A stretch of 32,000 nt of DNA from positions 937,207-969,206 of the forward strand of contig NZ_LT606950.1 of the NCBI RefSeq assembly GCF_900095195.1, given 5' to 3'. Below, in pieces: positions 1,866-26,079 of the stretch. The DNA is from Polynucleobacter necessarius. GTDB lineage: Bacteria; Pseudomonadota; Gammaproteobacteria; Burkholderiales; Burkholderiaceae. The first letter of the stretch is position 1, and the number at the start of each line of letters is the position of its first letter. The position numbers and the translations under genes were made by a program. The notes under the pieces are model-generated. The model saw only the letters and a list, made by a program, of their open reading frames with translations. It did not search any database and was not told the origin of the DNA.

Positions 1866-2525
1866 ATGATGCCCTCATCCACTTTTTTAAATATATTGGT
1901 AGGTCTTAGCTTGATGATTCTGGAATCTTCTTCAGTTGCTCATGCGCAAGAATTTCCGCCCAAGAAAACGATCACGATCGTAATTGGCTTTGCACCCGGT
2001 GGATCGGCAGATAGCGCCGCTCGCGGCATCGCCAAAAAACTCAGTGAAGATCTTGGTCAAAATGTGATCGTAGATAACAAACCCGGCGCCGGTGGAAATA
2101 TTGCGCATGCCTATACTGCGACCGCTCCCGCAGATGGATCTGTCATTTTATTTGGCTCTATTGGCCCATTAGCAGTTGCGCCACATTTAATGAAGTTGCC
2201 GTATGACCCTCAGAAAGATTTGGCGCCCCTGACTATGGGCGTCACCTTTCCCAACGTTTTGGTTGTGATTCCTGGGCTTGGGGTAAAAAATCTGAAAGAG
2301 TACATTGCGCTCGCCAAGAAAAATCCTAGGACGATTACGTTTGCCTCTACAGGCAGTGGATCCGCCTCCCACCTCCAAGGCGAACTCCTAAATGTGCGCG
2401 CTGATATAGACACGGTCAACGTTCCCTATAAGGGTGGCAGCCCAGCGATGGTTGATCTATATATTGCCAGCCAATCTACGCTATGGGGCAAGATCATTAC
2501 CGATAGAAAAATAACCGCTGAGTGA
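1866..2525 (+). pseudogene. Bug/TctC-family tripartite tricarboxylate transporter substrate-binding protein with an in-frame internal deletion of roughly 100 aa
   Basis: It has a signal peptide (MMPSSTFLNILVGLSLMILESSSVAHAQ). The Bug core follows: ITIVIGFAPGGSADSAARGIAKKL...DNKPGAGGNI...YKGGSPAMVDL. That core is joined directly to a typical Bug C-terminus, YIASQSTLWGKIITDRKITAE*. The product is about 219 aa against the roughly 320 aa I remember as typical. Confidence 0.7.
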
Positions 2526-2547
2526 CGTTTTGTTACGCAGCGGTTAT
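2511..2547. terminator. Hairpin between the convergent Bug pseudogene and bdhA; likely the bdhA terminator
   Basis: The arms ATAACCGCTG (2511-2520) and CAGCGGTTAT (2538-2547) form a 10-bp stem with a 17-nt loop. On the minus strand the stem is followed by TTTTTCT. On the plus strand it is followed by GGTTTTG. Confidence 0.5.
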
Positions 2548-2569
2548 GGTTTTGATGGGCTTAAGAGAT

Positions 2570-3346
2570 TTACTGAGCAGTCCAACCACCATCCATATTC
2601 CAGGCTACACCGCGTACTTCAGAAGCATCTGGTCCACAAAGAAATACCGCCAGTGCTGCGAGTTGTTCTGGCGTCACAAATTGACCTGAAGGTTGCTTCT
2701 CAGACACTAAGGCTATCTTGGCTGCTTCATTAGAAATACCTTCGCGCTCAGCCAGAGCATCCACCTGCTTTTGTACTAAAGGGGTCAAGACCCAGCCTGG
2801 GCAGATGGCATTACAGGTGATGCCAGTACGAGCATTTTCTAATGCAGTCACTTTAGTTAACCCAACGATGCCATGCTTAGCGGCAACGTAGGCAGCTTTC
2901 TGAGTGGATGCCACTAATCCATGCACAGAGGCAATATTAATAATGCGGCCCCAGTTACGTTTTTTCATGCCTGGAAGTGCATGATGCGTTGTGTGAAATG
3001 CAGAGCTGAGATTGATCGCAATGATGGCATCCCACTTATCCGTTGGAAAGTCTTCAATGTTGGCAGCATGTTGAATGCCTGCGTTGTTCACCAGAATATC
3101 TAAAGAGCCAAAACGTTTTTCGGTCTGCTTAATCAGATCTTCAATCTCTGCTGGCTTACTCATATCTGCGCCGTGGTAATCAACCTCAACACCACATGCT
3201 TTTATCTTGGCAATAGCGTCATCTTTTTCACCAAAGCCATTGACCATGATATTTGCGCCTTGCTTGGCCAGTGCTATAGCCATACCCAAACCGATACCTC
3301 TAGTGGATCCAGTGACTAGGGCTGTTTTACCTTTTAATGTAGACAT
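2570..3346 (-). CDS. bdhA: 3-hydroxybutyrate dehydrogenase (short-chain dehydrogenase/reductase family)
   Basis: Intact 258-aa ORF. It has the cofactor motif TGSTRGIGLG, NNAG, and the catalytic S...YVAAKHG, and ends WNMDGGWTAQ, typical of BdhA. Confidence 0.9.
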   Translation of the reverse strand: MSTLKGKTALVTGSTRGIGLGMAIALAKQGANIMVNGFGEKDDAIAKIKACGVEVDYHGADMSKPAEIEDLIKQTEKRFGSLDILVNNAGIQHAANIEDFPTDKWDAIIAINLSSAFHTTHHALPGMKKRNWGRIINIASVHGLVASTQKAAYVAAKHGIVGLTKVTALENARTGITCNAICPGWVLTPLVQKQVDALAEREGISNEAAKIALVSEKQPSGQFVTPEQLAALAVFLCGPDASEVRGVAWNMDGGWTAQ

Positions 3347-4055: not shown

Positions 4056-5223
4056 ATGAGTCACCCCATTCCAAAGCCTGACAAATACCAAGATATGCGT
4101 GAGGCACTTCGCAGCCTCTGTAGTAGCTTTGATTCAGCCTATTGGCAAAATTGACCATGACCGAGACTACCCCGAGGCCTTTGTTAAGGCTATGACTGAT
4201 GCTGGCTGGCTTTCAGCACTCATCCTCGAAGAATATGGTGGCTCAGGCTTAGGTTTGGCCGAAGCTTCCGTCATCATGGAAGAGATTAATTTCTCTGGTG
4301 GCAATTCCGGATCTTGCCATGGTCAGATGTACAACATGGGCACCTGCTTCGCTATGGCAGCGAACTGCAAAAGAAAATGTATCTCCCCAAAATTGCCTCG
4401 GGTGAACTACGTTTACAAAGCATGGCGGTGACTGAACCTACTACAGGAACCGACACTACGAAACTTAAAACCACCGCCGTTAAAAACGGGTGATAAGTAT
4501 GTAGTGAATGGTCAAAAAGTTTGGATCTCCCGTATTTAGCACTCTGACTTGATGATTCTGTTGGCGCGTACCACCCCTATCTCTGAAGTACAACGCAAAT
4601 CCGAGGGAATGTCGATCTTCATCGTGAACCTTCAGGATGCGATTGGGAAAGGCATGGAAGTGAGGCCGATTGCCAATATGGTGAATCATGAAACCAACGG
4701 GGTCTTCTTCGACAACCTCGAAATTCCTGCTGAAAATCTCATCGGCACCGAGGGTCAGGGTTTTAAATATATTCTGGATGGACTGAATGCAGAACGTGTA
4801 CCGATTGCAGCAGAGTGTATTGGAGATGCCTATTGGTTTATTGATCGCGCACGCCGTTATGCTAATGATCGCGTGGTGTTTGATCGTCCGATTGGTAAAA
4901 ATCAAGGCATTCAGTTTCCGATTGCTGACAGCTATATCGAAACGGAAGCGGCTAATCTCATGCGCTTTAAAGCCTGCGAACTCTTTGACAACCATCAACC
5001 TTGTGGCCCAGAAGCCAACATGGCAAAGTACCTAGCCGCCAAAGCCTCCTGGGAAGCGGCCAACGTTTGCTTGCAAACCCATGGTGGCTTTGGTTTTGCC
5101 AATGAATATGATGTCGAGCGCAAATTTAGAGAAACACGCCTCTATCAAGTGACCCCCATATCGACCAACTTGATTTACTCCTATGTTGCAGAACACATTT
5201 TGGGTCTACCAAGATCTTTTTAA
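4056..5223 (+). pseudogene. Acyl-CoA dehydrogenase with 3 frameshifts and 1 nonsense codon
   Basis: The protein is readable only by hopping frames. MSHPIPKPDKYQDMREALRSLCSSFDSAYW runs from ATG 4056. The next piece is KIDHDRDYPEAFVKAMTDAGW...HGQMYNMGT. Then LLRYGSELQKKMYLPKIASGELRLQSMAVTEPTTGTDTTKLKTTAVKNG. Then DKYVVNGQKVWISRI-TAG(4537-4539)-HSDLMILLART...FGFANEYDVERKFRETRLYQV. The shifts lie near 4143-4150, about 4340, and at the G-run 4488-4490. Confidence 0.9.
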
Positions 5224-5242
5224 CCCTGACCGATAACCCACT

Positions 5243-6426
5243 ATGAGCATTCGCCCTCTTGATGGCATTACTGTTGTTTCTCTAGAGCATGCGATTGCTG
5301 CTCCCTTTTGCACCCGTCAACTCGCGGATCTGGGTGCGCGAGTCATTAAGGTAGAGCGCCCTGGCAGTGGGGATTTTGCGCGTGCCTACGACAAGCAAGT
5401 GAAGGGCTAGTCATCCCATTGCGTCTGGGTAAATCGTTCTAAAGAAAGTTTGACGCTGGACTTAAAGCAACCTGCTGCACTAACTGCTTTAAAGAGTCTC
5501 TTAAAAACTGCGGATATCTTAGTGCAGAACCTAGCACCAGGCGCCGCTGCACGAATGGGGCTTACCACAGAACTGTTGCAGAAAGACAACCCCCGATTGA
5601 TCCTGTGTGACATTTCTGGGTATGGCAACGACGGTCCGTATCGGGATAAAAAAGCCTACGATCTGCTCATTCAGAGTGAGGCGGGATTTCTATCGGTCAC
5701 CGGAACCCCAGGGACTCCGAGTAAGGCAGGAAACTCAATTGCCGACATTGCAGCGGGAATGTATGCCTATACGAATATTTTGGCCGCTCTACTGCAAAGA
5801 GGTAAAACGGGTAAAGGCTCAGTGATCGATGTATCGATGTTGGAGTCATTAGGTGAATGGATGAGCTTTCCGTTGTATTACGCCTATGATGGCGCAGATG
5901 CCCCACCAAGAAATGGCGCCTCACATGCCACGATCTATCCGCACGGTCCATTTAAAGCGGGTGATGGCAAGACCGTCATGCTGGATTTACAGAATGAACG
6001 AGAGGGGGCGCAGTTTTGCGAAATCGTTCTGCAAAATTCAGCCCTTGCCACTGATGAACGCTTTGATAAAAACTTTAAGCGCAATGAGAGACGTGCTGAA
6101 TTGCTCGATATCATCAACGCTTGTTTAGTAAGCTGACTTCAGACGGACTGATTGCGAGATTAGAGGGAGCGCAGATTGCGAACGCGCATCTAAATGACAT
6201 GGCAGGCTTATGGAAGCATGAGCAATTAAAAGCACGCCAACGCTGGAAGGAGATTGATACTCCAAATGGCCAAATTCCTGCCCTGCTTCCGCCGGGACTG
6301 AACGATAGTTACGAGTACCGCATGGATCCTATTCCAGCGGTAGGTCAACACACCGAGGCCATTCTCAAAGAACTTGGCATCAGCGATACGGAAATTAAAA
6401 CAATGCTGGACAGCGGGGCAATTTAG
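5243..6426 (+). pseudogene. CaiB/BaiF family III CoA-transferase with 1 nonsense codon and 1 frameshift
   Basis: MSIRPLDGITVVSLEHAIAAPFCTRQLADLGARVIKVERPGSGDFAR is followed by an in-frame TAG at 5408-5410. The same frame then continues: SSHCVWVNRSKESLTLDLK...DLLIQSEAGFLSVTG. A frameshift at about 6118-6122 separates ...LLDIINA from FSKLTSDGLIARLEGAQIANA...GQHTEAILKELG. Confidence 0.9.
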
Positions 6427-7898
6427 AGAAGTGGTGACGCCAAGTGCGCCGCATTTTCTAAATAATGGTGCCAGCGTGGTCGCTTAGCCCACTTTTTAGG
6501 ATCCACTAAATCCGATTGCGCCAGATAGGACTCAATCAGCTTTTCAAACGTTTTACAGAAGTCTTCGTTATAGACAATTAAGCTGATCTCAAAGTTCAAT
6601 CGCAAGCTACGTTGGTCAAAGTTGACCGAACCAAAAATAGCGATCCGCTTATCAATCAACAAACTCTTAGTGTGAAGCAGGCCACCATGAAATTCAGCAA
6701 TCTTCACTCCGGCACCCATCAAGTCCGCATAAAAACTTCGACTACTCCAAGCCACTAGAGTGGAATCATTTAACTTAGGGACAATGAGTGTGACCTTCAC
6801 ACCTCGACCTGCAGCTGCCATTAAAGCCTGTATCAAGCCATCATCTGGCCCAAAATAGGGCGTCGTGATCGTGAGCTCTTCACGCGCATCCATAATGGCT
6901 GAGAGTAGAACTTGATACAAAATGTCATCACGGTAAACGGGGCCTGAAGAAAACCCCTGCGCCAATGCCGCGCCCTCATGCGGTGATGCAGGTGGCTCGC
7001 GATCATTAAAGTGTTTGATGCTGGGATTATCAACACTCCAGTCAAATGCAAATGTCAGCTCAAATTGCGCAGCAACTGGCCCTTCAATACGCACCATCGC
7101 ATCAACCCACTCGCCAACCCCTGAATCTTGCTTAAAAGTCCGTGGGTCAACCATATTCATACTGCCCGTCCAAACAATCGAGCTGTCAATCACAAAAATT
7201 TTGCGATGCAGGCGCAGATCGGCTCGCCGAAACTGAAAACGTCCCACTTGGATTGGCAACGCTTCAGTGACCCGAATACCAGCAGCCCGAAAACGTCCAG
7301 GCCACGGTGATTTAAACCAATCTTTACTGCCTAGGGAATCCAACAAGACTCGACAGGCAATACCGCGTTTTGCCGCGGCAATGAGGGCCTCTCCCACCCT
7401 GTCGGCATCTCCGTCCAATGCCCAAATATAGAACTCTAAATGCAGGCTTTTTTGAGCGCGATTAATCTCGTCAATAAAGTTCTGCAAAATTTTTAGTGAC
7501 TCGGTATGCAATTCAAGCTTATTACCAGAAACCACTGGTGAGCCATTCCGAGATTCCGCCAACAAACTGAGTGCGCGACCTTCTGGCGGTAGTTTTTCTC
7601 GATCAGCGATACATTCTTCTCTCATACATCGAGTAATTCCTTCGTACTCCCGATTCATACGAACAATTTTGCGAGTAAGCTTGCGACCTACTGGACGTTC
7701 ACCAATCAAAATGTACAGCGAAATTCCTAATAACGGCAACATCATGCCAATCAAGAACCAGGCAAACGCAACCCCAACCGGCCTTCTGACGGATATCAAG
7801 CGAAAGCCAAACAGAATCACAATCAATGCATGGAGAATGGGGACCCAAATGAGTGAAACCCCAAAAACCGACCCAAATAGAAACGCTACGATATTCAT
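6423..7898 (-). CDS. cls: Cardiolipin synthase (ClsA type, two N-terminal transmembrane helices)
   Basis: Intact 491-aa ORF with two PLD HKD motifs, LHRKIFVIDSSIVWTGSMN and LHTKSLLIDKRIAIFGSVNFDQRS. Its start overlaps the upstream stop by 4 nt. Confidence 0.9.
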   Translation of the reverse strand: MNIVAFLFGSVFGVSLIWVPILHALIVILFGFRLISVRRPVGVAFAWFLIGMMLPLLGISLYILIGERPVGRKLTRKIVRMNREYEGITRCMREECIADREKLPPEGRALSLLAESRNGSPVVSGNKLELHTESLKILQNFIDEINRAQKSLHLEFYIWALDGDADRVGEALIAAAKRGIACRVLLDSLGSKDWFKSPWPGRFRAAGIRVTEALPIQVGRFQFRRADLRLHRKIFVIDSSIVWTGSMNMVDPRTFKQDSGVGEWVDAMVRIEGPVAAQFELTFAFDWSVDNPSIKHFNDREPPASPHEGAALAQGFSSGPVYRDDILYQVLLSAIMDAREELTITTPYFGPDDGLIQALMAAAGRGVKVTLIVPKLNDSTLVAWSSRSFYADLMGAGVKIAEFHGGLLHTKSLLIDKRIAIFGSVNFDQRSLRLNFEISLIVYNEDFCKTFEKLIESYLAQSDLVDPKKWAKRPRWHHYLENAAHLASPLL

Positions 7899-8647
7899 TC
7901 AAGCTCCAATTGCGCTGTGATACCTAGATGATCCGATAGTTTTAACCATTCGTACAAGATTTCTGCTGAATGAATCTTTAAACCCCGTACATAAATACGA
8001 TCCATCGGCAAAATTGGTTTGACGCTTGGAAAAGTGCGGGCTGGAGAACCCGTCAAGACCTCAAAGACTTCAACAAATCCAGCCTCACGCATCGGTGCAC
8101 TCACTCGATTACGCCAATCATTGAAGTCACCCGCCACAATCGTCGGCGCATCATTAGTCAATTCTTTGATGTAGCGAATGATTTTGGCTAGTTGACGCTC
8201 CCTGCCACGTTCAAACAAAGCTAAGTGCACACAAAAGCAATGAATCGCAGGTGCATTAGCACTCAATTGAATAACACTATGCAATAAGCCACGTTTTTCA
8301 AAACGATAAGCAGAAATATCGTAGTTATTTCCTTTATGCAAAGGATGTTTAGACAAAATGGCATTGCCATGGTGACCATCTGGATACTCCACATTCTTGC
8401 CATAATGCCAGTCATGCCAAAAATCCTCTGACAGAAAGTGTGTCAACTCGGTTAGCGGCCATTGGCTAAACCGTCGCACTCTGCCCCGATGCTCTTGCTG
8501 TAATTCTTGCAAGAACAATAAATCCGGGTGATGGCTGCGCATTCTTTGACGCAATTGATAAATCGTCGAGTGCCGATGCAACGGCGATACACCTTTATGC
8601 ACATTCATACTCATCACAGTAAAGCGGATACTAGTAATTTGGGGCAT
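7895..8647 (-). CDS. Endonuclease/exonuclease/phosphatase (EEP) family protein, YbhP-like
   Basis: Intact 250-aa ORF with motifs MSMNVHKG, LLFLQE, GNAILSK, AGDFNDW and SDHLGI. It is translationally coupled on both sides. Confidence 0.8.
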   Translation of the reverse strand: MPQITSIRFTVMSMNVHKGVSPLHRHSTIYQLRQRMRSHHPDLLFLQELQQEHRGRVRRFSQWPLTELTHFLSEDFWHDWHYGKNVEYPDGHHGNAILSKHPLHKGNNYDISAYRFEKRGLLHSVIQLSANAPAIHCFCVHLALFERGRERQLAKIIRYIKELTNDAPTIVAGDFNDWRNRVSAPMREAGFVEVFEVLTGSPARTFPSVKPILPMDRIYVRGLKIHSAEILYEWLKLSDHLGITAQLELE

Positions 8648-8847
8648 TAAAACTGTCCTGCAGCACGCTGTCGACGTACTCGGGCTAAATAGATCTCACC
8701 TTCCACCAAATCCTGGCACTGCATGCACTTGTTGCAGATTGATGCTTGCTCCCGGAGCTCCTCAATCGAGCTTATGGGGTTAGCATCCAAGTACTCACGT
8801 AGATCAACATCAAAGACGTTGTTGCAAAGGCAAATTACTTCAGCCAT
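8647..8847 (-). CDS. Bfd-like [2Fe-2S]-binding small protein
   Basis: 66-aa ORF with the cysteine pattern C-L-C ... C-NK-C-MQ-C, typical of the BFD-like [2Fe-2S] domain. Its TAA shares one nucleotide with the ATG of the EEP gene (TAATG). Confidence 0.7.
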   Translation of the reverse strand: MAEVICLCNNVFDVDLREYLDANPISSIEELREQASICNKCMQCQDLVEGEIYLARVRRQRAAGQF

Positions 8848-8913
8848 AGGTCAAAAGTTCGGGATATCAGTCTCATTAACGGCATTTTGCCATTGCCTTG
8901 TAGAATCAAGCGC

Positions 8914-9610
8914 ATGTTGACCGCTTTTTCTGATGCCATCACCCTGCTGGCCCACCTTGATGGTGGCGTACTGGGGATCGTCCTGATCTCTTTACAGGTA
9001 AGCCTCACCGCGCTGCTCCTGGGAACCCTGATTGGACTTCACATCGGCGCACTATTGGCCACCGAAGAATTTTCCGGCAAAAAATTCATCATCGTGACCC
9101 TCAATACCCTCATGGGGGTGCCAACGGTTATTGTGGGGGTCATTGTTTACCTCTTACTCTCACGCTCGGGTCCCTTGAGATCCAGGGGATGGCTATTCAC
9201 CCCAAAAGGCATGATTGTGGCTCAAGACGTTATTAACAACCCCATTAATTGCCGCCCATAGTCGCCAAATTTTGGAAGACTCTTGGAAGATTCATTGAGA
9301 CGCCTTTTTGGGCCTACATCTACCAGCCATCTCACGTTATAAATGGTTAATTTGAGATTGTCGCTTCTCGCTAACGATTGCGATTCTTGCGGGATTAGCA
9401 AGAGCGATCTCCGAGGTGGGGGCCGTCATGATTGTGGGTGGCAATATTCAAAATTCCACGCGTACGATAACCACAGCCATCGCGCTGAAAACTAGCAAAG
9501 GCAATTTACCTCTTGCTCTAGCATTGGGCATTATGCTTTTGGGTATTGTATTAATCGCAAATCTATTTACGGTGATAGTTCGTCAAATTGCGGAGCGTCG
9601 TTATGACTAA
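8914..9610 (+). pseudogene. ABC transporter permease (TupB-like tungstate/anion type) with 1 frameshift and 2 nonsense codons
   Basis: MLTAFSDAITLL...LFTPKGMIVAQ is followed by a shift at about 9226. The sequence then reads TLLTTPLIAAHSRQILEDSWKIH-TGA(9296-9298)-DAFLGLHLPAISRYKWLI-TGA(9353-9355)-DCRFSLTIAILAGLARAISEVGAVMIVGGNI... Confidence 0.85.
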
Positions 9611-10198
9611 TATGACTGAACAATTCGAGAAATACATTGAACTCAATAATGTCGTTGTTCGGAGCAACGATCGCGTTATTCTAAATATCCCCCACGCCAC
9701 CATTCCGGCAGATCGCATTGCTGCCTGTATTGGACCAAATGGCGCAGGCAAAATACCCTACTCAAGCTTTTAGATGGCTTGATCAAGCCCGATTCAGGAT
9801 CGATCAACTACTCCTTTGTTACCAAGACAGCATTGGTTGCGCCAGTCTTTGAACTTGAGCTAATTGATGCGATGAAAAAATTACATCTGTCTGATGTTGA
9901 TTAAATTCTCGAATAATGTCTTCAACTTGTTCAGTAGCTTTAGGATCCAAGTTTGCTGTGGGTTCATCCAATAAAACTAAATTGGGCTTCTGGAGTAACG
10001 CCCTCCCCAGACAAAGCCTCTGTCGTTCACCCGCCGATAATTTATGCGCTGGACTATTGGCTAATCCGGACAATCCAATGCGCTGCATCACTCGATCAAC
10101 ATCGCTCTCAGTGATTTCCGAATCGGCATCTCGAACTAATGCCATATTGGTCCTTGCGGATGCCTTGATCATGGGGGTGTGGTGCAATACCAATCTGA
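9603..10198 (+). pseudogene. ABC transporter ATP-binding protein disrupted by a 1-nt deletion at Walker A and by inversion of its 3' two-thirds
   Basis: Walker A (GPNGAGK) and TLLKLLDGLIKPDSGSINYSFVTKTAL are on the plus strand, with a frame break at 9753-9754. The Q-loop region, the signature LSAGERQR, Walker B (LVLLDEPT) and the H-loop (SSH) are on the minus strand in ORF 9819-10193. Confidence 0.85.
9832..10194 (-). other. Inverted segment inside the ABC ATPase gene, bounded by the inverted 6-mers ATTGGT and ACCAAT
   Basis: ATTGGT lies at 9832-9837 and ACCAAT at 10189-10194. Re-inverting the interval gives the in-frame sequence ...YSFVTKTALVLHHTPMIKASARTNMALV... The frame then ends ...QVQRLAQPI-TGA at 10196-10198. 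Confidence 0.8.
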
Positions 10199-10205
10199 GT
10201 AAGGA

Positions 10206-10488
10206 TTATTTGGCTGCTGGTGCTGCTGCAGGCGCAGCTGCAGATACTGGCGATACAAATGGAGGAGGAGCAACGTAAGCCGCAGGAGCTTGTGTTCCAG
10301 CAACCTTGTAACGGTCTGCTACGCGATTCTGGGCTTGGCACAATGATATGCGCCACTCTATCTCCATAAGCAGTCTTCGCCTTGGCTAAAGCAGCTGCCT
10401 CAGCTTGCTCGGGGATAAGTGGAGGGAGTGCTGCCAGTGCAGTGGCGCCAATCAGCGAGCCGAGGAATAAAGCAATGGTATTTTTCAT
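10206..10488 (-). pseudogene. Small secreted Ala/Pro-rich protein downstream of FDH gamma; probable single frameshift
   Basis: AAGGA lies 8 nt upstream of the ATG at 10488. The signal peptide is MKNTIALFLGSLIGATALAA. After ...AKAKTAY the plausible continuation EIEWRISLCQAQNRVADRYKVAGTQAPAAYVAPPPFVSPVSAAAPAAAPAAK* is in another frame, with its stop at 10206-10208. Confidence 0.4.
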
Positions 10489-10498
10489 GGCATTGTCC

Positions 10499-11552
10499 TT
10501 ATTTATTGAGCTTGTCGTACCAGAGCTCATGGTGTTCTTTAGCCCAAGTGGCATCCACATATCCAGTTTTCATTCCATCTATTGAACCTTGCATGCCGAT
10601 GGTACCGATATAGATGTGCCCCATTGCCATCGCAGACATAAGAATCGCCGCGCTACTGTGAATGATATTGGCAATCTGCATCGTGCCACGAGTATATTCA
10701 ATCGTCATAAATGGCACGATCATGTCCAGCACGAAGCCCGGTGCGGAAATGACTAATCCCAAGAAAGTCATGCCGAACCAGAACCAGAACTTCTCACCCA
10801 TGTTGAAGAATCCAGCGGGCACATGCTTGCCACTAAAAATTCCGCCAAAGGACATGAGCCATTCCAAGTCACCCTTGCCTGGCAGATTTTTATGAGCAAA
10901 CAGCAAGAAGAAAACCAAAATACAAATTGTGAATACTGGGCCAGTAAAGTTGTGAATATTTTTGCAAACATTCAAGAAGGAGCCATAAGCCATTCCGCCC
11001 ATTAAAGGCATTGCAAAATATTTTCCATACAAGATCAGTAAGCCAGTAATAGCAAGCGCCAAGAAGCTAAATGCCATCAACTAGTGAACCAAACGGTCGA
11101 ACGCGCTAAATCGCTTGATTTTGACACCCGATAATGGCTCGTGCAGCTTGATAGAACCTTTGATGGTGTACATCGCGATAATGCCGAAGAAGGCAATCGC
11201 CAGTAACCAACCACCGTAAACAGTGATTACGCCATTACGAATCACACGCCACTCTTGACCGGAGCGCTGAATTAAAACGCTAGCCTCTTTGTCTGGAATG
11301 CTGACGTAGTTGTATGGATCGCTATTAGCTGTCGTAAAAATCGATGGATTGGCTGGTTGAGCCTGCGCTTGCGTGCCATTCGCTAACGCATTCGGATTGG
11401 CTGGCGCCGACAAGGGAGGGACATCCACTCCGCTTGGCGATGGCAGAGGAGCCATTGGCGCGCGCTCAGCATAACCAACGCTAGCAAGGCGTAAGCGACA
11501 GTCCTGCGGCCAATATTAGAGTGCGTAGAACCCTAGAAAATGATTGTTTCAT
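10499..11552 (-). pseudogene. fdhC: Formate dehydrogenase cytochrome b (gamma) subunit with 1 frameshift and 1 nonsense codon
   Basis: The signal peptide MKQSFSRVLRTLILAAGLS starts at ATG 11552 and shifts frame at about 11490-11495 into LRLASVGYAERAPMAPLP... The motif RFSAFDRLVH is followed by TAG (11081-11083), where the family has HW. The sequence then continues LMAFSFLALAITGLLILYGK...HIYIGTIGMQGS. Confidence 0.85.
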
Positions 11553-11598: not shown

Positions 11599-11835
11599 TC
11601 ACTTAATACGGCTGTATTCATTTTGACCATGAGTGCGCTTATCGGTCGACTCAGTCCAGCTAACTTGATCGCCTGGCGTCCAATTCTTGGTCATAAAGCC
11701 ATTATTTGCACCCATATAAGGAGCAACGTCTGGTCGCTTAGCAGTCTTCGCAGCAATTTCAGGCGGCTCAGAGCACGCAGCCAACAAAGCCCCTGCTGCT
11801 AGGCACATACCGAGAGTTTTGAAATTCACTTTCAT
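11599..11835 (-). CDS. Small lipoprotein encoded between the FDH beta and gamma genes
   Basis: MKVNFKTLGMCLAAGALLAAC contains the lipobox LAAC. The 78-aa ORF is intact. Its ATG overlaps the stop of the beta gene (TAATG). Confidence 0.6.
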   Translation of the reverse strand: MKVNFKTLGMCLAAGALLAACSEPPEIAAKTAKRPDVAPYMGANNGFMTKNWTPGDQVSWTESTDKRTHGQNEYSRIK

Positions 11836-12491
11836 TATTTCGCTCCTGAAATTTTTGCGGCTGGAGTTGGAGTTGGCGCAGGAGTATCCGGACCACCATA
11901 TGCTGTAGTCCAACCAAATGCCTTAGAGCCAGGATACTTGCCGTTCTTCTCGCGATTTGCAACACGCTGATTGAAGATTCCGGAGATGATATCGCTATCA
12001 CCACCAATTGGCGCCTTGGTAGAACACATCTCGGCACAGAGTGGCAATTTACCCTCAGCTAAACGATTGCGACCATATTTTTCAAATTCCGCAACGCTAC
12101 CGTTCTCTTCTAGACCACCGCTACAGAATGTGCACTTATCCATTTTGCTACGTGATCCAAAAGCGCCTTTGCTTTGGAACTGAGATGCATCAAATGGGCA
12201 TGCAAATGAGCAGTAGCCGAAACCGATACAAATATCTTTGTCATGTAGCACCACGCCCTCATCGGTGCGGTAGAAACAATCAACTGGACATACGGCCATA
12301 CAAGGTGCATCTGTACAGTGCATACATGCTACCGAAACCGATTTTTCTTGGCCAATGATGCCATCGTTTACCGTGACGACACGGCGACGATTAACGCCCC
12401 AAGGCACTTCGTTATCATTCTTACACGCGGTCACACATCCGTTGCACTCGATGCATCGCTCTGTGTCGCAAATAAATTTCATTCTTGCCAT
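11835..12491 (-). CDS. fdhB: Formate dehydrogenase iron-sulfur (beta) subunit; the ORF is intact but one cluster-ligand Cys is replaced by Phe
   Basis: 218-aa ORF with an AGGAGA ribosome-binding site. Its ferredoxin motifs are CIECNGCVTAC, CMHCTDAPCMAVCP and CTFC...CAEMC. The third motif reads CIGFGYCSFACP instead of CxxCxxCxxxCP; the Phe codon is at 12219-12221. Confidence 0.8.
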   Translation of the reverse strand: MARMKFICDTERCIECNGCVTACKNDNEVPWGVNRRRVVTVNDGIIGQEKSVSVACMHCTDAPCMAVCPVDCFYRTDEGVVLHDKDICIGFGYCSFACPFDASQFQSKGAFGSRSKMDKCTFCSGGLEENGSVAEFEKYGRNRLAEGKLPLCAEMCSTKAPIGGDSDIISGIFNQRVANREKNGKYPGSKAFGWTTAYGGPDTPAPTPTPAAKISGAK

Positions 12492-12517: not shown

Positions 12518-15397
12518 TTAGGCAAATTTCTCGATTTGACACATAGTGGTCTTGGTCTCCTGCATCATGGACACTTGGTCACAACCATATGTCGTTGCAG
12601 TATTCACCGCCTCACCTAGCACCACTGGAGCCGCACCATCTGGATGGTACTTACGCAGATCGTTGCCTTGCCACCAGCCCGCAAAGTGGAATGGCCCCCA
12701 AAGCAGTTCCTTGATCAACGCGCTCTGTTACCAAAGCACGCACTTTGATCTTGGCACCAGTCGGTGACTTAACCCAAACGTAATCCCAGTTCTTAATGCC
12801 ACGGTCTGCTGCGGCCTTGGGATTGATCTCCACAAAGTTTTCTTGTTGGAGTTCTGCCAACCATGGATTAGAACGAGTCTCGTCTCCACCACCCTCGTAC
12901 TCAACCAAGCGACCAGAGGTCAAGATTATTGGGAACTTCTCATACAACTTCTGATTCAAGTTCTGATCTTGAACAGTCTTATGGAGTGTTGGCAAGCGCC
13001 AGAAGTTCTTCTTATCCGCTGAAGTTGGGTGCTTACGCATCATTGGTGCGTTTGTGCTGTAAAGCGCTTCGCGGTGAATTGGAATTGGATCCGGGAAGCT
13101 CCAAACAATCGCGCGTGCTTTGGCGTTGCCAAATGGATGGCAATCATTTTTCATCACAACGCGTTGGATACCACCGGATAAGTCGGTTTTCCAGTTCTTA
13201 CCTTCAGCAAGCTTTTTCTCTTCATCGGTTAATTGATCCCACCAGCCGAGTTTTTTCACGAACACGTGATCAAACTCTGGATAACCCGTCTGAATCGCTG
13301 ATCCCTTAGAACAGGAACCATCGCCCGCCAACAAGCTGACACCGTCACGCTCCACACCAAAGTTCGCACGGAAGTTGCCGCCACCCTACATCACACTCTT
13401 GCTGGTGTCATAAAGGTTTGGTGAGCCTGGATGTTTGATAGCAGCCGTTCCATAGTAAGGCCAAGGCAAGCCGTAGTAGTCACCTGTAGTGTCGTATCCC
13501 GTTACAGGATCAACACCGCCACGTGCTTTAAGAGTCTTCGGATCAAATGTAGCCACCATTCTCATGTGCGCTTTGAGACGCTCAGGGGTCTGGACCGGTG
13601 TAACCAATCGTCCAAACAGAGCGGTTGATCTCACGCAAGATATCTTCAATTTGTGGCTCTCTCCATTGTTTGCCAGCAAACTTTGAATTAAGCATCTTGT
13701 AATTTTTAGACAGCTCTTCACCAAATCCAAGACGATCGGCAAAAGCTTGCATGATCACATGATCGGGCACTGATTCGAACAATGGATCAATGACTTTTTC
13801 ACGCCACTGTAGTGAACGATTTAATGCGGTTGCGGAACCGCAGGTTTCGAGCTGCGTCGTAGCAGGTAATAAGTAAACATTGCGATTCTTATTAACAGCT
13901 TGACCTTCGGCAGGTGGCATTGCAGCCATCGCAGCTGTAGCGCTTGGATACGGATCTACGACAACGAGCAAATCCAATTTATCCATCGCACGCTTCATAT
14001 CCAGACCACGGGTCTGTGAGTTTGGCGCATGACCCCAGAAGAACAACCCTTTGACGGTTGTCTGCTGATCAATCATATCGTTCTTTTCGAGAACAGCGTC
14101 CACCCAACGAGATACTGTAGTGCCTGACTTCTCCATCATGTTTGGAGCGTAGCGACCCTTGATTTAGTCGTAGTCAACACCCCAAACGGTTGCGTAGTGC
14201 TTCCAGGATCCAGCCGCTAAACCATAGTAGCCTGGTAATGAGTCTAGATTAGGACCAACGTCGGTTGCACCTTGAACGTTATCGTGACCACGGAAAATAT
14301 TTGTACCACCGCCAGACTTGCCAACGTTACCTAATGCCAACTGCAAGATGCAGGATGCACGCACCATCGAGTTACCAATTGTGTGCTGTGTTTGACCCAT
14401 ACACCATACGATGGTGCTTGGACGATTCTTCGCCATCGTCTCTGCAGCTTTGTACATTTGCACCTCTGGAACACCGCACGCTTCTTCTACCGCAGCAGGC
14501 GTCCACTTCTCCATCACCTCTTTACGGGCAAGATCGAAGTGAAGAGGTCTATCTGTACACACTGTTCCGTGGGTTGCACGGTAGATGCTACTGTTGAGAA
14601 TGGTGTATGGGTACGTCAAGACGCAGTATTTGATTCCCCAAATAATTTGGGCGCACACTGCGCTAAAGGCGCGGCGTTACGTGAACATGGTCATGGCGAC
14701 TATCGTTTACGTTACCCAATGAAGTTGGTTGATGGAAAGTATCAACGTATTTCTTGGGACCAAGCGCTCACAGAAATCACAGCGCAGATGAAGAATATTC
14801 GTGAGAAATACACTCCAGATGCAATGTTCTTTATTGGATCATCCAAACATAACAACGGACAGGCCCACTTACTCCATAAGTTGGTCTCTTTCTTTGGAAC
14901 CAACAATACAGATCACCAGGCGCGTATCTGTCACTCAACCACAGTCGCTGGTGTTGCTAACACCTGGGGCTATGGTGCGATGACCAATAGCTACAACGAC
15001 ATGATGAATGCCAAAGCGGCACTCTATATTGGTTCGAATGCTGCTGAGGCTCACCCGGTATCGATGCTGAGCTTATTGCATGCCAAAGAAAATGGTTGCA
15101 AAGTTATCGTGGTCGACCCACGATACACCCGTACTGCGGCCAAATCTGATCAATACATTCGTATTCGTTCCGGTACTGACATTCCATTCTTGTTTGGTCT
15201 CCTGTATCACATCTTCAAAAATGGTTGGGAAGATAAGAAGTATATCAATGATCGCGTTTACGGCATGGAAGAGATCCGTACCGTCCAACATGGCTTTGCT
15301 TGGTTCGGCAACAGTTCTGCACTAGGCTCAACTGACTCGCTGCGATACCGGCACCAACGCCAACGCCAGAGCGTTTCAAGAATGTGCGTCGATCCAT
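12518..15397 (-). pseudogene. fdhA: Formate dehydrogenase catalytic (alpha, molybdopterin) subunit with 3 frameshifts, 2 nonsense codons and a 758-bp internal inversion
   Basis: The Tat signal MDRRTFLKRSGVGVGAGIAAS starts at 15397 on the minus strand. The Fe-S and active-site region, KIEVKRSICTHCSVGC...HQARICHSTTVAG...VVDPRYTRTA, is on the plus strand (14527-15279). The remainder is on the minus strand, broken at TAA 14164-14166, TAG 13386-13388, about 13595, the C5 run at 12695-12699, and about 15320. Confidence 0.9.
14523..15280 (+). other. Inverted segment inside fdhA, bounded by the inverted 5-mers TACGG and CCGTA
   Basis: TACGG lies at 14523-14527 and CCGTA at 15276-15280. Re-inverting the interval joins ...AEPSKAMLDG-TGKIEVKRSIC... 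at one end. At the other end it joins ...YGMEEIR-KEVMEKWTPAAVEEACG... Both joins are in frame. Confidence 0.85.
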
Positions 15398-15559
15398 TGT
15401 TGGTACCGCCGCTTTTGAACCACGCGACAAGCTACCGATGAGGCGAGAAGTTGTACGACTACTTTATGAGGTATTGGATTTACGAGTCAGACTCATATGT
15501 TGTCCCTGAGAAAGTTTTTTGTTATGAATGATGTATTCGATTAATGAAGAGATTGCGAC

Positions 15560-20855: not shown

Positions 20856-20996
20856 TACCTTCTCCTCTGATGCGTAACCCTGACAAACCCTATTGGGCAG
20901 GGAGAGTTACAAAATGTAATTTTTATGAATAGTATTTAGATTAACCGCACCAGCCAAAAATTGCTTGAATTGGCTCTAGGGAAATGGTGTGTTAAA

Positions 20997-22007
20997 TCAG
21001 AAAATCAACAAACTTAGGTAATACACGAGCATAGACATCAGGGCTGTTGCTGGGATAGTGAAAATCCATGCCCAAACAATATTTCCAGCTACGCCCCAAC
21101 GAACTGCGCTAGCGCGCTGAGTCGAGCCCACACCTACAATAGCCCCTGTGATCGTATGGGTAGTTGAGACTGGAATCCCAATAGCAGTTGCAGCAAACAA
21201 GGTAATGGCGCCACCAGTTTCGGCACAAAATCCGCCAACAGGCTTTAACTTGGTCAATTTCTGACCCATTGTTTTGACAATGCGCCAGCCACCAAACATA
21301 GTTCCCAATGCAATCGCTATATAGCAACTAATAATGGTCCACGTTGGCGGCATTTTTGCACCCGCCTCAGCGTAACCCGTAATAATCAAAAGCAACCAGA
21401 TAATGCCAATCGTCTTTTGCGCATCGTTTCCGCCGTGACCCAGGCTGTAGGCACTTGCCGATACCAGCTGTAATCGACGGAACCAGCGATCAGTCTTTGC
21501 CATGGTAGCGTTTCTGCATACCCAAGATACCAGCAACATGATCAACGATCCCAGCAGAAACCCAACCATCGGGGAGATGAAAATAAACGAAACGGTCTTG
21601 ATGATTTCAGTCCAAACCAGGCCATCTACTCCAGCTTTTGGCAGAGCTGCACCAACCAAGCCACCAATCAAGGCATGAGAAGAGCTTGATGGAATACCGT
21701 AGTACCAAGTCACAACATTCCAGACAATAGCGCCAACGAGCGCACCAAAAGTTACATGCAAATCCACCGCATCAGGATGAACGATGCCCTTGCCAACGGT
21801 TGCCGCAACACTCAGATGAAAGATAAAAATTGCAAGGAAGTTAAAGAAAGCAGCGAAGATCACCGCTTGTTGAGGCTTTAAAACACCAGTTGATACGACC
21901 GTTGCAATAGAATTCGCCGCATCATGAAATCCATTCATGAAGTCGAAACTGAGCGCCAATATTACTAAAAGCGCTACTACCCAAAAAGCTACTTCGGTCG
22001 CCGGCAA
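20997..22007 (-). CDS. pit: PiT-family inorganic phosphate transporter
   Basis: Intact 336-aa ORF with a probable TTG start. The PiT signature FDFMNGFHDAANSIAT is repeated as GHGGNDAQKTIG. The protein is polytopic. Confidence 0.85.
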   Translation of the reverse strand: MPATEVAFWVVALLVILALSFDFMNGFHDAANSIATVVSTGVLKPQQAVIFAAFFNFLAIFIFHLSVAATVGKGIVHPDAVDLHVTFGALVGAIVWNVVTWYYGIPSSSSHALIGGLVGAALPKAGVDGLVWTEIIKTVSFIFISPMVGFLLGSLIMLLVSWVCRNATMAKTDRWFRRLQLVSASAYSLGHGGNDAQKTIGIIWLLLIITGYAEAGAKMPPTWTIISCYIAIALGTMFGGWRIVKTMGQKLTKLKPVGGFCAETGGAITLFAATAIGIPVSTTHTITGAIVGVGSTQRASAVRWGVAGNIVWAWIFTIPATALMSMLVYYLSLLIF

Positions 22008-22018
22008 CTTAATTCGCC

Positions 22019-22666
22019 TTAAAAGTTTTCAAGAACGATGCCTTCAACCAAGTTGGCAACGTCTTCACATTTATCGGTTACTTCCTCAAGCAACTCATAG
22101 ATGCGTTGGCACTTAATAAGCTCACGCACTTCAATATCTTCGCGGAACAGCCGCGTAATCGCAGTAGAAAGCAAGCGATCCGCACCCGATTCCAAATGAT
22201 CAATCTCATCACAAGTCTGCAGAGCAGCCTTAGCTACTTCAGGATCGGAAATGTCCTTAAGCGTGCCAACTGCGTTCTTCATACTGATGCAACATTGATT
22301 GCACAACTCCGCCATTTGCAACATCTCCGGAGTCATCTGCTTCACATCGTATAGATGCATAGCTTCGGTACCGTTTTGCAGTAAATCAGCGACGTCATCC
22401 ATCGTATTGATGAGCGAGAAAATCTGGTCACGATCGATTGGAGTAATAAATGTTTTGTGTAGACGACGATGAACTTCTTTCACAATATCGTCACAAGCAT
22501 GCTCTGCTTTATCGACCTCTTGGGTATATTTCGCACGCAGCGCTTCATCACCGTAGTGTTCAACGAACTTCAAAAAGGATTCTGAAGCGACAACGATATT
22601 TCCGGCATGTTCATTGAACAATTCAAAGAAATTACCATCGTGAGGCATTAACTTACTGAAAAACAT
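22019..22666 (-). CDS. DUF47 (PhoU-like, YkaA-type) protein paired with the PiT transporter
   Basis: Intact 215-aa helical ORF lying 11 nt upstream of pit, the canonical DUF47-PiT arrangement. Confidence 0.75.
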   Translation of the reverse strand: MFFSKLMPHDGNFFELFNEHAGNIVVASESFLKFVEHYGDEALRAKYTQEVDKAEHACDDIVKEVHRRLHKTFITPIDRDQIFSLINTMDDVADLLQNGTEAMHLYDVKQMTPEMLQMAELCNQCCISMKNAVGTLKDISDPEVAKAALQTCDEIDHLESGADRLLSTAITRLFREDIEVRELIKCQRIYELLEEVTDKCEDVANLVEGIVLENF

Positions 22667-22730
22667 AAATCACGATCCTTTAGGAGCAAAAACTGCGGGG
22701 TTTTAGGCTGTCGCTATTCTAAACAAATGA

Positions 22731-22922
22731 TTATTGGGCAACCGGAAATCCAGCCTTTGTTATAAGCTGGCTTGCCTGCTCCTGAGAGAGCGTTGTCGCT
22801 AGGGTCACCGTCTGCGTGGCTAGGTCCGCCTGCACCTTGGCAGAGGCTTGAGACTGAACTGCCCTCGTTACCGCATTGATACAGCCGCCACAGGTCATTC
22901 CAGAAACTTTGAGAGTGAACAT
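22731..22922 (-). CDS. copZ: Copper chaperone CopZ (heavy-metal-associated domain)
   Basis: MFTLKVSGMTCGGCINAV carries the HMA motif. AAGGGG lies upstream of the ATG at 22922; the ORF-track GTG at 22928 is less likely to be the start. Confidence 0.8.
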   Translation of the reverse strand: MFTLKVSGMTCGGCINAVTRAVQSQASAKVQADLATQTVTLATTLSQEQASQLITKAGFPVAQ

Positions 22923-22986
22923 TTCCACCCCTTTTTATGTAAATTTTCCGTCTAATTCGCCTTCTAACTGGTAGATTATCTTCTAT

Positions 22987-25260
22987 ATGGACAGCCAAAA
23001 TGCACCGAATTCTTCAGTTTTTACCCTTGATATTGAGGGAATGACCTGCGCCTCCTGCGTTGGGAGGGTCGAAAAAGCATTAGACCGAATTCCTGGGGTT
23101 GAAGCTGCCAGCGTGAACTTGGCGACCGAACAAGCTAAAGTGCGCCTCAAGGCAGACTCAGACACTTCCATTGCCGATGTCATCGCCTTGGTTCAGAAAA
23201 CTGGCTATGGAGCGCAAATCAGCAATCCCCATGGAAATGCTCCAATAAAAAGCGCCCACTCTTTTTGGGGTTCAGATGACTTAGGTCGCGTTTTACTCAG
23301 TTTTGCTTTATCAGCCCCACTGATCTTGCCAATGTTCTTGATGCCATTTGGTATTCATTGGACCCTATCTGCTAAATGGCAAATCATTCTGGCTACTCCA
23401 GTGCAATTTATTTTGGGATGGCGTTTTTATAAAGCGGGTGTTAAATCATTGCTCGCTGGTGCTGGCAATATGAATTTACTCGTTGCGCTTGGCACGAGTG
23501 CCGCCTATGGATTAAGCGTTTACCAAATGATCGCTTCACCGCATACAACACATGAACTGTATTTTGAAGGTTCAGCTGTCATCATTTGCATGGTCTTACT
23601 AGGCAAATGGCTTGAATCCAGAGCAAAACAACAAACCAGTGAAGCGATTCGCGCACTGCAAAAGCTTTGGCCAGAAAATGCCAAAGTATTGGATACTGGG
23701 GCCGTGATTGGCGGAGGCGCTTTTTTAGAGAGATACCGAGAACTCCCGCTTGATCAAGTATTCCCTAAAGACCGCATCTTGGTTTTGCCGGGGGAGCGCA
23801 TTCCTGTTGACGGCGAGATTCTTTTTGGCAGCAGCCATATCGATGAGTCCCTCCTCACAGGGGAGAGCGAGCCAGTCAAGAAAATGCTTGGCGCAAAGGT
23901 CATCGGCGGATCATTAAATGGTGAAGGCTTATTAATTATTGATGCGCAAGCTGTTGGCGTGGAAAGTGTTCTATCGCAAATCATTACCTTAGTAGAGGAT
24001 GCGCAAACACAAAAAGCTCCTATCCAGAAATTGGTTGATCGAGTGAGCGTTATTTTTGTACCTACTGTCATTGGAATTGCTTTACTGACAGGTCTCATAA
24101 ATTGGTTTTATCTCGATTCAGCATCCATCGCTATTTTGCGAGCAGTATCGGTCCTGGTAATTGCGTGCCCCTGTGCCCTGGGTTTAGCGACTCCTGTGGC
24201 CTTTATGGCTGGCACTGGCGTGGCAGCCCGCTTTGGTATTCTGATAAAAGATCCCCAAGTACTAGAGTTGGCACATCGCCTAACTGTGGTGGCATTCGAT
24301 AAAACAGGCACTCTCACGGTTGGCAAGCCAAGAGTACTCTCGTTTATTAGCCTTACCAATGCCGCAGATGAAAACGCCCTATTAGCAACCGCAGCAGGAT
24401 TACAAATGGGTAGCGAGCACCCCTTGGCCAAAGCGCTATTGGATGCCACTAAATTTTCGGATGCAATCCCGATTCCCCCATCTGAAAGCCAAGCGTTGCC
24501 TGGAATCGGCATTGCCAGCAAACCCAGTTCTGGACCGTGGGCTGGGCAGTCACTTGTTTTGCAGAGCATCGCTTCTCTTACCAACGACCCCAATGCAACA
24601 ACGATCTCACATCAGGCACAACCACTGCTCGATCAAGGGCAAACGGTTTCGGTTTTGATTCACAAAGATGCAGAATCAACACCACTCGCAATCATTGGAT
24701 TCGGCGACGATCTCAAGTCCAACGCTAAAGAGGCCATCACTACCTTGCATCGTATGCGTATTCGAACGGTGATGCTATCGGGCGACAACTCTGCTGCCGC
24801 AAACCGTGTTGGTCAATCACTTGGAATTGATGAAGTCCTTGGTCAAATCATGCCAGGTGATAAAGCGCAAATTATTCGGACACTTCAACAGTCTTGGGAA
24901 GATGGTCAGCAATACGTTGCCATGGTGGGTGATGGCGTCAACGATGCTCCCGCCTTAGCAACAGCAGATGTGGGGATGGCAATGTCCACTGGAACGGATG
25001 CCGCGATGCAAGCCTCTGGCATCACCCTGATGCGCGGGGACCCCACTCTAGTAGCGGATGCGATTGATATCTCTCAGCGCACGTGGAAGAAAATCGGGCA
25101 GAACCTCTTCTGGGCGTTTGCATTTAATTCAACAGGAATTCCGCTCGCTGCCTTAGGCTATCTCTCACCCATGCTTGCAGGCAGCGCCATGGCACTCTCG
25201 AGCTTTTGCGTGCTCAGTAATGCGCTATTACTAAAACGTTGGCGACCATCACATCGCTGA
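22987..25260 (+). CDS. copA: Copper-translocating P1B-type ATPase
   Basis: Intact 757-aa ORF with an N-terminal HMA domain (GMTCASC). It also has TGES, the CPC transmembrane metal site (ACPCALGLATP), DKTGTLT, HP and GDGVNDAP. Confidence 0.92.
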   Translation: MDSQNAPNSSVFTLDIEGMTCASCVGRVEKALDRIPGVEAASVNLATEQAKVRLKADSDTSIADVIALVQKTGYGAQISNPHGNAPIKSAHSFWGSDDLGRVLLSFALSAPLILPMFLMPFGIHWTLSAKWQIILATPVQFILGWRFYKAGVKSLLAGAGNMNLLVALGTSAAYGLSVYQMIASPHTTHELYFEGSAVIICMVLLGKWLESRAKQQTSEAIRALQKLWPENAKVLDTGAVIGGGAFLERYRELPLDQVFPKDRILVLPGERIPVDGEILFGSSHIDESLLTGESEPVKKMLGAKVIGGSLNGEGLLIIDAQAVGVESVLSQIITLVEDAQTQKAPIQKLVDRVSVIFVPTVIGIALLTGLINWFYLDSASIAILRAVSVLVIACPCALGLATPVAFMAGTGVAARFGILIKDPQVLELAHRLTVVAFDKTGTLTVGKPRVLSFISLTNAADENALLATAAGLQMGSEHPLAKALLDATKFSDAIPIPPSESQALPGIGIASKPSSGPWAGQSLVLQSIASLTNDPNATTISHQAQPLLDQGQTVSVLIHKDAESTPLAIIGFGDDLKSNAKEAITTLHRMRIRTVMLSGDNSAAANRVGQSLGIDEVLGQIMPGDKAQIIRTLQQSWEDGQQYVAMVGDGVNDAPALATADVGMAMSTGTDAAMQASGITLMRGDPTLVADAIDISQRTWKKIGQNLFWAFAFNSTGIPLAALGYLSPMLAGSAMALSSFCVLSNALLLKRWRPSHR

Positions 25261-25282
25261 GTGAATAGCCATTTCCATAGAT

Positions 25283-26079
25283 CTATTTTGGATTCTTGCG
25301 CACTAACTCGATATCGCCATAAAAGGCGTGCATCTCCGACTTCGTATTGTCTGTATCCGTGAGTAACGCAATGCCAATCACATCACCTGGCATCTCTCCG
25401 TAAGCACTTTTGTAGTCTGCTGTTAGATCCCGTTGGGGTTATGCCATTGCCCTAAGTTATCCTAGCCAGAATCCACCACAATCATTTTGATGCGCGAGCT
25501 ATGTGCATTGGTGATCATCGTATTGATTGGTGATTTTCCAGACCAAATGTACATCAAGGTGGCATAGGGCATCTCTTGACCACTAATTAGATTGGCCATC
25601 TCAAATGTCATGTTATCTTTTAGGGATAGCTTTGATCTGTTGCCATCAAAAGCAACCAATATCCGCAACGGCGCATCGTCTCTAGTGCTCTCAGCGTTAT
25701 CAGCCTCTGGTACAGCAGTTAATGCTTTCCATTCCCAATGCAACCATAAGTTATTTGCCGACCTTGGCTTCAACTTCATGGCTAAACCTGAGGCAGATGT
25801 TTTTGCGTTTACACTGAGCACGGTTTTACCCTGGTAGTTTTCTAGGCGATAAACCGTATTCTTTTTATAGGGTGCGATTCGGTAAAAGTGCCAACCATTA
25901 GGCATACCCTCTCGCGCACTCTCGGTGGAAAATTTTGGCAAATCTTCTTGAGCAGGCAGTTGGTCTATATTGATTGCCTGTCCAGACTCATTCCGGACAG
26001 GCCCGCCACCAAAACCTGAACACCCTGCAAGCATGAGTGCCAGAGTGGTAATGAGTGAGGACATAATGAATGGACGCAT
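25283..26079 (-). pseudogene. DUF3047-family lipoprotein with 1 nonsense codon and 1 frameshift
   Basis: MRPFIMSSLITTLALMLAGC contains a lipobox. After ...IKMIVVDSG comes TAG (25462-25464). The sequence continues DNLGQWHNPN, shifts frame at about 25430-25436, and then reads RDLTADYKSAYGEMPGDVIGIALLTDTDNTKSEMHAFYGDIELVRKNPK* (stop 25283-25285). Confidence 0.7.

Follow-up and report, generated by a model that had tools for sequence, protein, structure and literature searches.

An inversion and an adjacent deletion within a decaying ABC ATPase gene of Polynucleobacter necessarius, probably produced together by a single event

The locus described here belongs to Polynucleobacter necessarius, a ciliate endosymbiont, and many genes are broken across the window, by which we mean the whole 32,000-nt stretch of DNA that was analyzed. 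The region is syntenic with free-living Polynucleobacter genomes, and the shared order runs from a cardiolipin synthase gene through genes for an endonuclease/exonuclease/phosphatase protein and a Bfd-like ferredoxin to a 231-aa ABC permease. After the permease come the genes for a 235-aa ABC ATPase and a small, convergent secreted protein, and then the operon for formate dehydrogenase (FDH). Among intact relatives, the closest one found was an ENA metagenome contig with 89% nucleotide identity (L081), the ATPase of which (P0002) is 235 aa long. The other references were GCA_964643245.1 (L082; CAZXSX010000011.1), the complete genome CP061311 (L084), a free-living genome (L087), a single-cell-genome contig (L001), L002, and L085. 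The coordinates of the individual features are listed in Table 1.

Table 1. Features of the ATPase locus and of other parts of the window (positions are those of the window)
Feature	Position	Strand	Remarks
Permease pseudogene, TupB-like, ABC_perm1 subfamily	8914..9610	+	Orthologue 231 aa, intact in L081, L084, L001
ATPase codons 1-50, ending in Walker A GPNGAGK	9603..9752	+	Pseudogene
1-nt deletion in the codon after the Walker A Lys, causing a frameshift	9753..9754	+	Alignment to L001, L002, L081
ATPase codons 52-79 (TLLKLLDGLIKPDSGSINYSFVTKTALV), collinear until the left junction	9755..9837	+	Plus-strand HSP stops at 9837
ATTGGT, end of the original left flank (6 bp, L081 5241-5246)	9832..9837	+	Retained; putative inverted copy at 10189-10194
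Inverted ATPase body, codons about 80-197	9838..10188	-	L081 5247-5597/5599 reversed; minus-strand HSPs, 5 references
ACCAAT, reverse complement of the left-flank ATTGGT	10189..10194	-	Probable 6-bp inverted duplication
Right junction, a deletion junction	10194..10195	.	L081 5600-5710 (codons 198-234) absent
ATPase 3' remnant CTGAGTAA with the original stop TAA at 10200-10202	10195..10202	+	L081 ends ...ATC ACT GAG TAA
Convergent small signal-peptide/Ala-Pro-rich gene	10206..10488	-	Frameshifted, 1-nt deletions near 10343 and 10355
Second intragenic inversion, ~0.75 kb, FDH alpha-subunit pseudogene	about 14527..15280	+	Minus-strand HSPs vs L082, L084, L087, L001
ORFs within 20877-22741	20997-22007; 22019-22666		Latter PhoU_div-like in L086
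P-type ATPase	22987-25260		100% identity to WP_114662682.1

The transporter genes were compared with known ABC importer families. The intact permease orthologue of L081 scored 229.6 against the NCBIfam model NF038017 (ABC_perm1; cut-off 100), and even the N-terminal fragment left in the window reached 104.8. The intact orthologous permease also resembles TupB (E=4e-48), and the pair adjoins a molybdopterin formate dehydrogenase operon, which are both likenesses to TupABC. However, both proteins fall below the equivalog cut-offs, with the intact permease at 164.1 against 320 for TupB (NF041773) and the ATPase, measured on the restored window sequence only, at 86.8 against 400 for TupC (NF041774), and no binding-protein gene is adjacent in Polynucleobacter. 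JGI labels the ATPase orthologues 'tungstate transport system ATP-binding protein'. On these sequence similarities, the pair is best called a putative TupBC-like oxyanion (tungstate/molybdate-type) ABC importer, the ancestral ATPase of which would have been 235 aa long. Judging from gene position only, the importer is predicted to supply W or Mo to the adjacent FDH, which seems plausible.

The module as a whole is in decay. The permease gene carries a +1-nt insertion near position 9222 and two in-frame nonsense codons, one replacing Arg and the other Trp, while FDH gamma is split by a Trp-to-stop change at 11078-11080, FDH alpha lies in several frames, and the FDH beta ORF (11835-12491, 218 aa) still looks intact. 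Since the ATPase, permease, FDH gamma, FDH alpha, and small-protein genes are all broken, a further lesion in the ATPase gene could be tolerated. When the restored ATPase was compared with that of L081, dN/dS was 0.13 (19 non-synonymous and 36 synonymous changes) vs 0.03-0.04 for intact neighbors, and constraint on the ATPase appears to have been relaxed only recently. Degraded relatives point to losses of other kinds. In L082 (7300-8720) the transporter was lost independently: the ATPase is collinear, with a stop codon at Q176 and no inversion, the permease carries a frameshift and a Trp-to-stop change different from that of the window permease, and several neighboring genes are split too. 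In a second P. necessarius genome, a 151-aa call (P0283) is collinear through the right breakpoint to the normal C-terminus. Other degraded lineages have been deprived of this transporter by different, independent lesions, none of them an inversion.

Several structural differences were also observed elsewhere in the window and among the references. A sister contig with 99% nucleotide identity (L086, Logan SRR32119647) spans window 21151-25958 only and stops short of the ATPase locus. It lacks window 25396-25709 (314 bp), and its synteny with the window stops past 25958; these differences possibly reflect a rearrangement between very close symbiont strains. Window 20877-22741 is without a counterpart in the free-living genome L087, where the FDH-associated genes directly adjoin the copper ATPase region. 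In a free-living Polynucleobacter metagenome contig (L088, ENA ERZ4227755 NODE_16150), an exact 410-bp tandem duplication (658-1476) takes in the 3' half of the ATPase gene together with the convergent gene's 3' end, which creates a chimeric 134-aa ORF (P0304). This duplication could be genuine and recent, or else an assembly artefact.

Within the ATPase gene, alignment to L081 by blastn broke into three blocks. Window 4594-9837 matched L081 3-5246 in the forward direction, window 9836-10194 matched L081 5599-5241 in reverse (90% identity, E=6e-140), and window 10195-10630 matched L081 5711-6158, again forward. The identical strand switch was found against L082, L084, L085, and L001, such that all five references bear out the original prediction of an intragenic inversion of ~0.36 kb in a pseudogenized ABC ATPase. 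The motif split that had been read from the window alone was also correct: the plus strand carries GPNGAGK plus 28 further codons, and the minus strand carries, within the inverted body, the Q-loop region, the LSAGERQR signature, Walker B (LLLDEP), and the H-loop. Likewise, ATTGGT and ACCAAT do occupy 9832-9837 and 10189-10194 as reported, and a pair of these hexamers at that spacing occurs once in the window vs 0.07 expected by chance. Re-inversion restores the frame as had been proposed, giving ...YSFVTKTALVLHHTPMIKASARTNMALV..., which is collinear with every orthologue; the re-inverted segment reads ...KTALVLHHTPMIKAS..., as the orthologues do, aligns collinearly with L001 and L002, and matches the 235-aa orthologues across the left junction. 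The 1-nt deletion at 9753/9754 was confirmed as well (GGCAAAA-TACC vs GGTAAAACTACT). The inverted segment and its flanks are 90.3% and 89.1% identical to L081, respectively. A horizontal origin of the segment was considered and rejected; its divergence equals that of the flanks, and the segment is therefore native DNA.

It had been suggested that the inversion would be refuted if the minus-strand half were a separate conserved gene in relatives. This refutation fails, as all close homologues are collinear 235-aa proteins, and for the same reason the window represents the derived state. The two junctions in the inverted configuration read ACAGCATTGGTTGCGCCAGTCTTT and GGTGCAATACCAATCTGAGTAAGG, whereas the collinear configuration reads ...GCATTGGTATTGCACC.... 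Neither junction 24-mer had a match in JGI metagenomes, exact look-ups of the 124-aa minus-strand ORF (9819-10193), the 108-aa RefSeq protein, and two intact neighboring proteins in other assemblies found nothing, and a homologue search with the inverted ORF returned 100% identity only in the window's own genome. The motifs of the ABC ATP-binding family (PF00005), which the orthologues carry in order on one polypeptide, are all present here, but on two strands. Because of this, the broken frame at 9753/9754, and the deletion of the C-terminal 37 residues, the locus is a PF00005-family pseudogene.

RefSeq takes a different view of the minus strand, where it lists a 108-aa 'ATP-binding cassette domain-containing protein' (WP_231968536.1; window 9871-10193) within the 124-aa ORF. 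This entry would fit a functional arrangement, in which the ORF is a stand-alone half-ATPase gene or the segment a programmed invertible switch, as would the still protein-like character of the inverted part (dN/dS 0.08 vs L081). However, the ORF is without a Walker A motif, no relative has a separate half-gene, the partner permease is dead, and the low dN/dS fits a recently killed, highly conserved domain. Selection acting on the inverted ORF itself was considered and rejected: dN/dS is 0.08 in the inverted part vs 0.28 in the 5' part, a difference built on few changes (9 and 10 non-synonymous, respectively) and following the pattern of a conserved domain. The features of a programmed switch are likewise missing, as the inverted repeats at the two junctions measure only 6 bp, no recombinase is found among the neighboring genes, the arrangement is not conserved in the relatives, which are collinear, and part of the gene is deleted, which makes the inversion irreversible, since flipping the segment back cannot restore the gene. 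We therefore consider a functional arrangement extremely improbable. WP_231968536.1 is an annotation artefact, the flipped middle of a dead gene, and belongs in a pseudogene.

Some loss of sequence at the 3' end had been suspected, and the loss proved to be real and to amount to exactly 111 bp (37 codons), corresponding to L081 5600-5710. The deletion removed the residues ...HIIFIDQGEIKEKGPV...QQELI. Its start coincides with the right junction, where window 10194 is the counterpart of L081 5241 and the next base, 10195, that of L081 5711, and for this reason the inversion and the deletion were probably one event. The C-terminus originally proposed, RLAQPI followed by TGA, holds only in part. 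The TGA at 10196-10198 is present, but the codons for Pro, Ile, and stop derive from the second hexamer and do not represent the ancestral C-terminus; the true stop (ACT GAG TAA in L081) is kept within CTGAGTAA in another frame. The distance from the TGA to the stop of the convergent gene, which lies at 10206-10208, had been put at 8 nt and was measured at 7 nt.

The origin of the two hexamers bears directly on how the inversion arose. The original prediction had taken them for an inverted microhomology of 6 bp that existed beforehand, assuming CAA CCA ATC as the ancestral frame at the right site. Inferring the ancestral bases at the breakpoints from relatives, the nearest of which is ~10% diverged, we found that none of the seven collinear relatives reads ACCAAT (CAACCAATC) at the right breakpoint. 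Their sequences there are CAACACATC, CAATACATC, CAGCACATC, CAGTACATT or GACTCCATC, the first two belonging to the two closest relatives; in codons these sites read CAA CAC ATC, CAA TAC ATC, CAG CAC ATC, CAG TAC ATT or GAC TCC ATC, and as hexamers ACACAT, ATACAT, GCACAT, GTACAT or CTCCAT. In addition, the window sequence ...GTGCAATACCAAT follows the reverse complement of the left flank without a break as far as L081 5241 (the reverse complement of L081 5241-5271). As the hexamer is absent from every relative and the copy of the left flank runs unbroken into ACCAAT, ACCAAT would most simply be a 6-bp inverted duplication made by the event itself. Only GT is shared at the left junction (overlap 9836-9837, 2 bp) and 0 bp at the right one, so that the pre-existing microhomology would be about 2 bp if the right hexamer is an inverted copy.

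We likewise looked for, and rejected, an imperfect inverted repeat of greater length around the ancestral breakpoints: the best candidate there was TTGCACCA/TTGCGCCA (7/8), which is not significant, since 10% of random 45-mer pairs equal or exceed the top score found over the full length of the two 45-mers. At the two junctions themselves, no inverted repeat longer than 6 bp was found. A simple inversion between a perfect 6-bp inverted repeat (ATTGGT...ACCAAT) already present, with a separate 3' deletion later, would account for two hexamers that complement each other perfectly and are placed precisely where the strand switches, and the residue following LAQ does vary among orthologues (H, Y, S, Q), which makes an ancestral Pro conceivable. 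However, with the hexamer missing from the right site in all seven relatives, including the two closest, this explanation requires two specific substitutions that happened to yield a perfect repeat, and it further requires an independent deletion that begins within 0-1 nt of the junction. We regard it as improbable. In short, a balanced repeat-mediated inversion would call for a repeat at both breakpoints before the event, which was not found in the seven collinear relatives, and a balanced inversion of any kind would call for junctions without gain or loss, where we find 111 bp deleted at the right junction and 6 bp duplicated in inverted orientation. A complex rearrangement mediated by microhomology or template switching agrees with junction homologies of 2 bp and 0 bp, a copied tract corresponding to L081 5241-5599, and the presence of both a deletion and a duplication.

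We consider it likely that the locus represents a lineage-specific complex rearrangement in a dead gene, in which inversion, duplication, and deletion resulted from one event in vivo. We infer that replicative template switching, and not breakage with rejoining, underlay this event. DNA synthesis would have left its template past ...GCATTGGT (L081 5246) and started again on the opposite strand about 350 bp further on, primed by a match of about 2 bp (GT/AC at 5598-5599). Next, 359 nt would have been copied backwards, reaching 6 nt beyond the point of departure (5241), before synthesis rejoined its first template, 111 bp farther downstream (5711). In the predicted product, a 0.36-kb segment is inverted, 6 bp are present as an inverted duplication (ATTGGT...ACCAAT), and 111 bp are deleted, so that the last 37 codons are gone but the stop is kept. 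The single-event claim rests on the coincidence of the deletion end with the junction, and a later, independent deletion starting within 0-1 nt of that junction seems unlikely. With regard to mechanism, a staggered break on the left combined with resection on the right would leave an identical scar.

A second intragenic inversion is present 4.3 kb away in the FDH alpha-subunit pseudogene. Intact FDH alpha is a 992-aa protein encoded on the minus strand. In the window, the N-terminal Fe4S4/molybdopterin part is on the plus strand (ORF 14383-15441) and the remainder on the minus strand. Its junctions can be read either as 2 shared bp (GG/CC) or as an inverted duplication of 4 bp (ACGG...CCGT) accompanied by the loss of 4 bp. 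Comparison of the window (about 1-32000) with L082, L084, L085, and L087 revealed no inversions beyond these two, the remaining minus-strand matches near the diagonal being 22-34 bp long with E>0.04. The window thus contains two inversions (0.36 and 0.75 kb) within 5 kb, and small template-switch inversions might be a recurrent mode of gene decay in this P. necessarius lineage, although we hold this to be doubtful. If it were true, the cause could lie in the loss of a function that holds template switching in check, for example a 3' exonuclease or a factor that stabilizes the fork, and a genome-wide comparison with free-living relatives would provide a naturally occurring catalogue of these events for a bacterium.

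Protist symbiont genomes are often amplified prior to sequencing. The inversion could thus be an artefact of sample preparation or assembly, for example an MDA chimera that entered the consensus, and the true gene would then be collinear and carry the frameshift only. The signature of the locus equals that of MDA chimeras, which combine inverted sequence with an intervening deletion at a few complementary nucleotides; over 85% of them have been described as being of this inverted type with a deletion in between, and the complementary tracts that prime them measure 2-21 nt (Lasken and Stockwell 2007, PMC1855051). One of the references provides what looks like an example, as the single-cell contig L001 carries one FDH sequence twice in inverted orientation (about 2035-3112 and 9942-10446). 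Window 13490-13954 matches both L001 10405-9942 and the region near L001 3071, the latter as part of a longer HSP (window 13490-14527 to L001 3071-2035), and this inverted duplication looks like an amplification chimera in that reference. For the ATPase locus, however, an artefact would require two chimeric junctions that both dominate coverage, which should be rare when many symbiont genome copies serve as template, and the contig is a single 1.55-Mb sequence with no repeat at the junctions able to mislead an assembler. Both inversions of the window also sit in genes with other inactivating lesions. By a rough estimate, pseudogenes make up about one third of the window, and the chance that both inversions fall in pseudogenes is accordingly about 0.12. 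All told, we judge an artefact to be unlikely, and we retain the complex rearrangement in vivo as the preferred reading.

So understood, the locus offers a natural, base-resolved example of a bacterial chromosome in which an inversion is combined with a deletion beside it and with a short duplication in inverted orientation. The paired inversions hint that genome erosion in a young endosymbiont is due in part to structural events of the template-switch kind. The locus also documents coordinated decay of formate dehydrogenase together with a tungstate/molybdate-uptake module, which has suffered independent lesions elsewhere. On the practical side, since WP_231968536.1 is the flipped middle of a pseudogene, strand-aware pseudogene detection is needed in degraded genomes. 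It should be noted that the lesion is of an unusual type, but the gene is an ordinary decaying one of a pseudogene-rich symbiont, and no new system is involved; the kind of rearrangement is already known, the locus is another instance of it, and views on ABC transporters and on genome reduction are unaffected.

Pseudogene decay in P. necessarius symbionts of Euplotes (Boscaro et al. 2013 and 2017) reportedly proceeds with point mutations and indels as the usual lesions. The present module resembles that pattern, in that non-essential metabolic genes are being eroded by independent frameshifts and nonsense codons in parallel across lineages. Among inversions, those in E. coli reported by Schofield, Agbunag and Miller (1992, Genetics) are said to occur between short inverted repeats that exist beforehand, measure about 12-23 bp, and leave a balanced product. 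The ATPase inversion resembles these in being sub-kilobase, intragenic, and without a site-specific recombinase, but differs in that it is unbalanced (-111 bp, +6 bp) and has no pre-existing breakpoint repeat in the relatives. With MDA chimeras, the locus shares inverted sequence and an intervening deletion joined at a few complementary bases; however, such chimeras are in-vitro, low-frequency, single-junction products, whereas the locus has two junctions in a finished 1.55-Mb consensus. Template switching inside one replication fork has been described in E. coli, spanning hundreds to thousands of bp and using short imperfect homologies (PMC1428787). E. coli examples in general are mostly direct-repeat deletions and amplifications or very short quasipalindrome corrections, unlike the locus, and the locus is known only as a fixed scar in a natural genome, for which a replicative origin is a proposal. 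Nevertheless, like bacterial intra-fork switching of the FoSTeS/MMBIR type, the locus has 0-2 bp of junction homology and a span of a few hundred bp, and like such events it joins a copy of nearby sequence in inverted orientation to a neighboring deletion and to what would be a short templated duplication.
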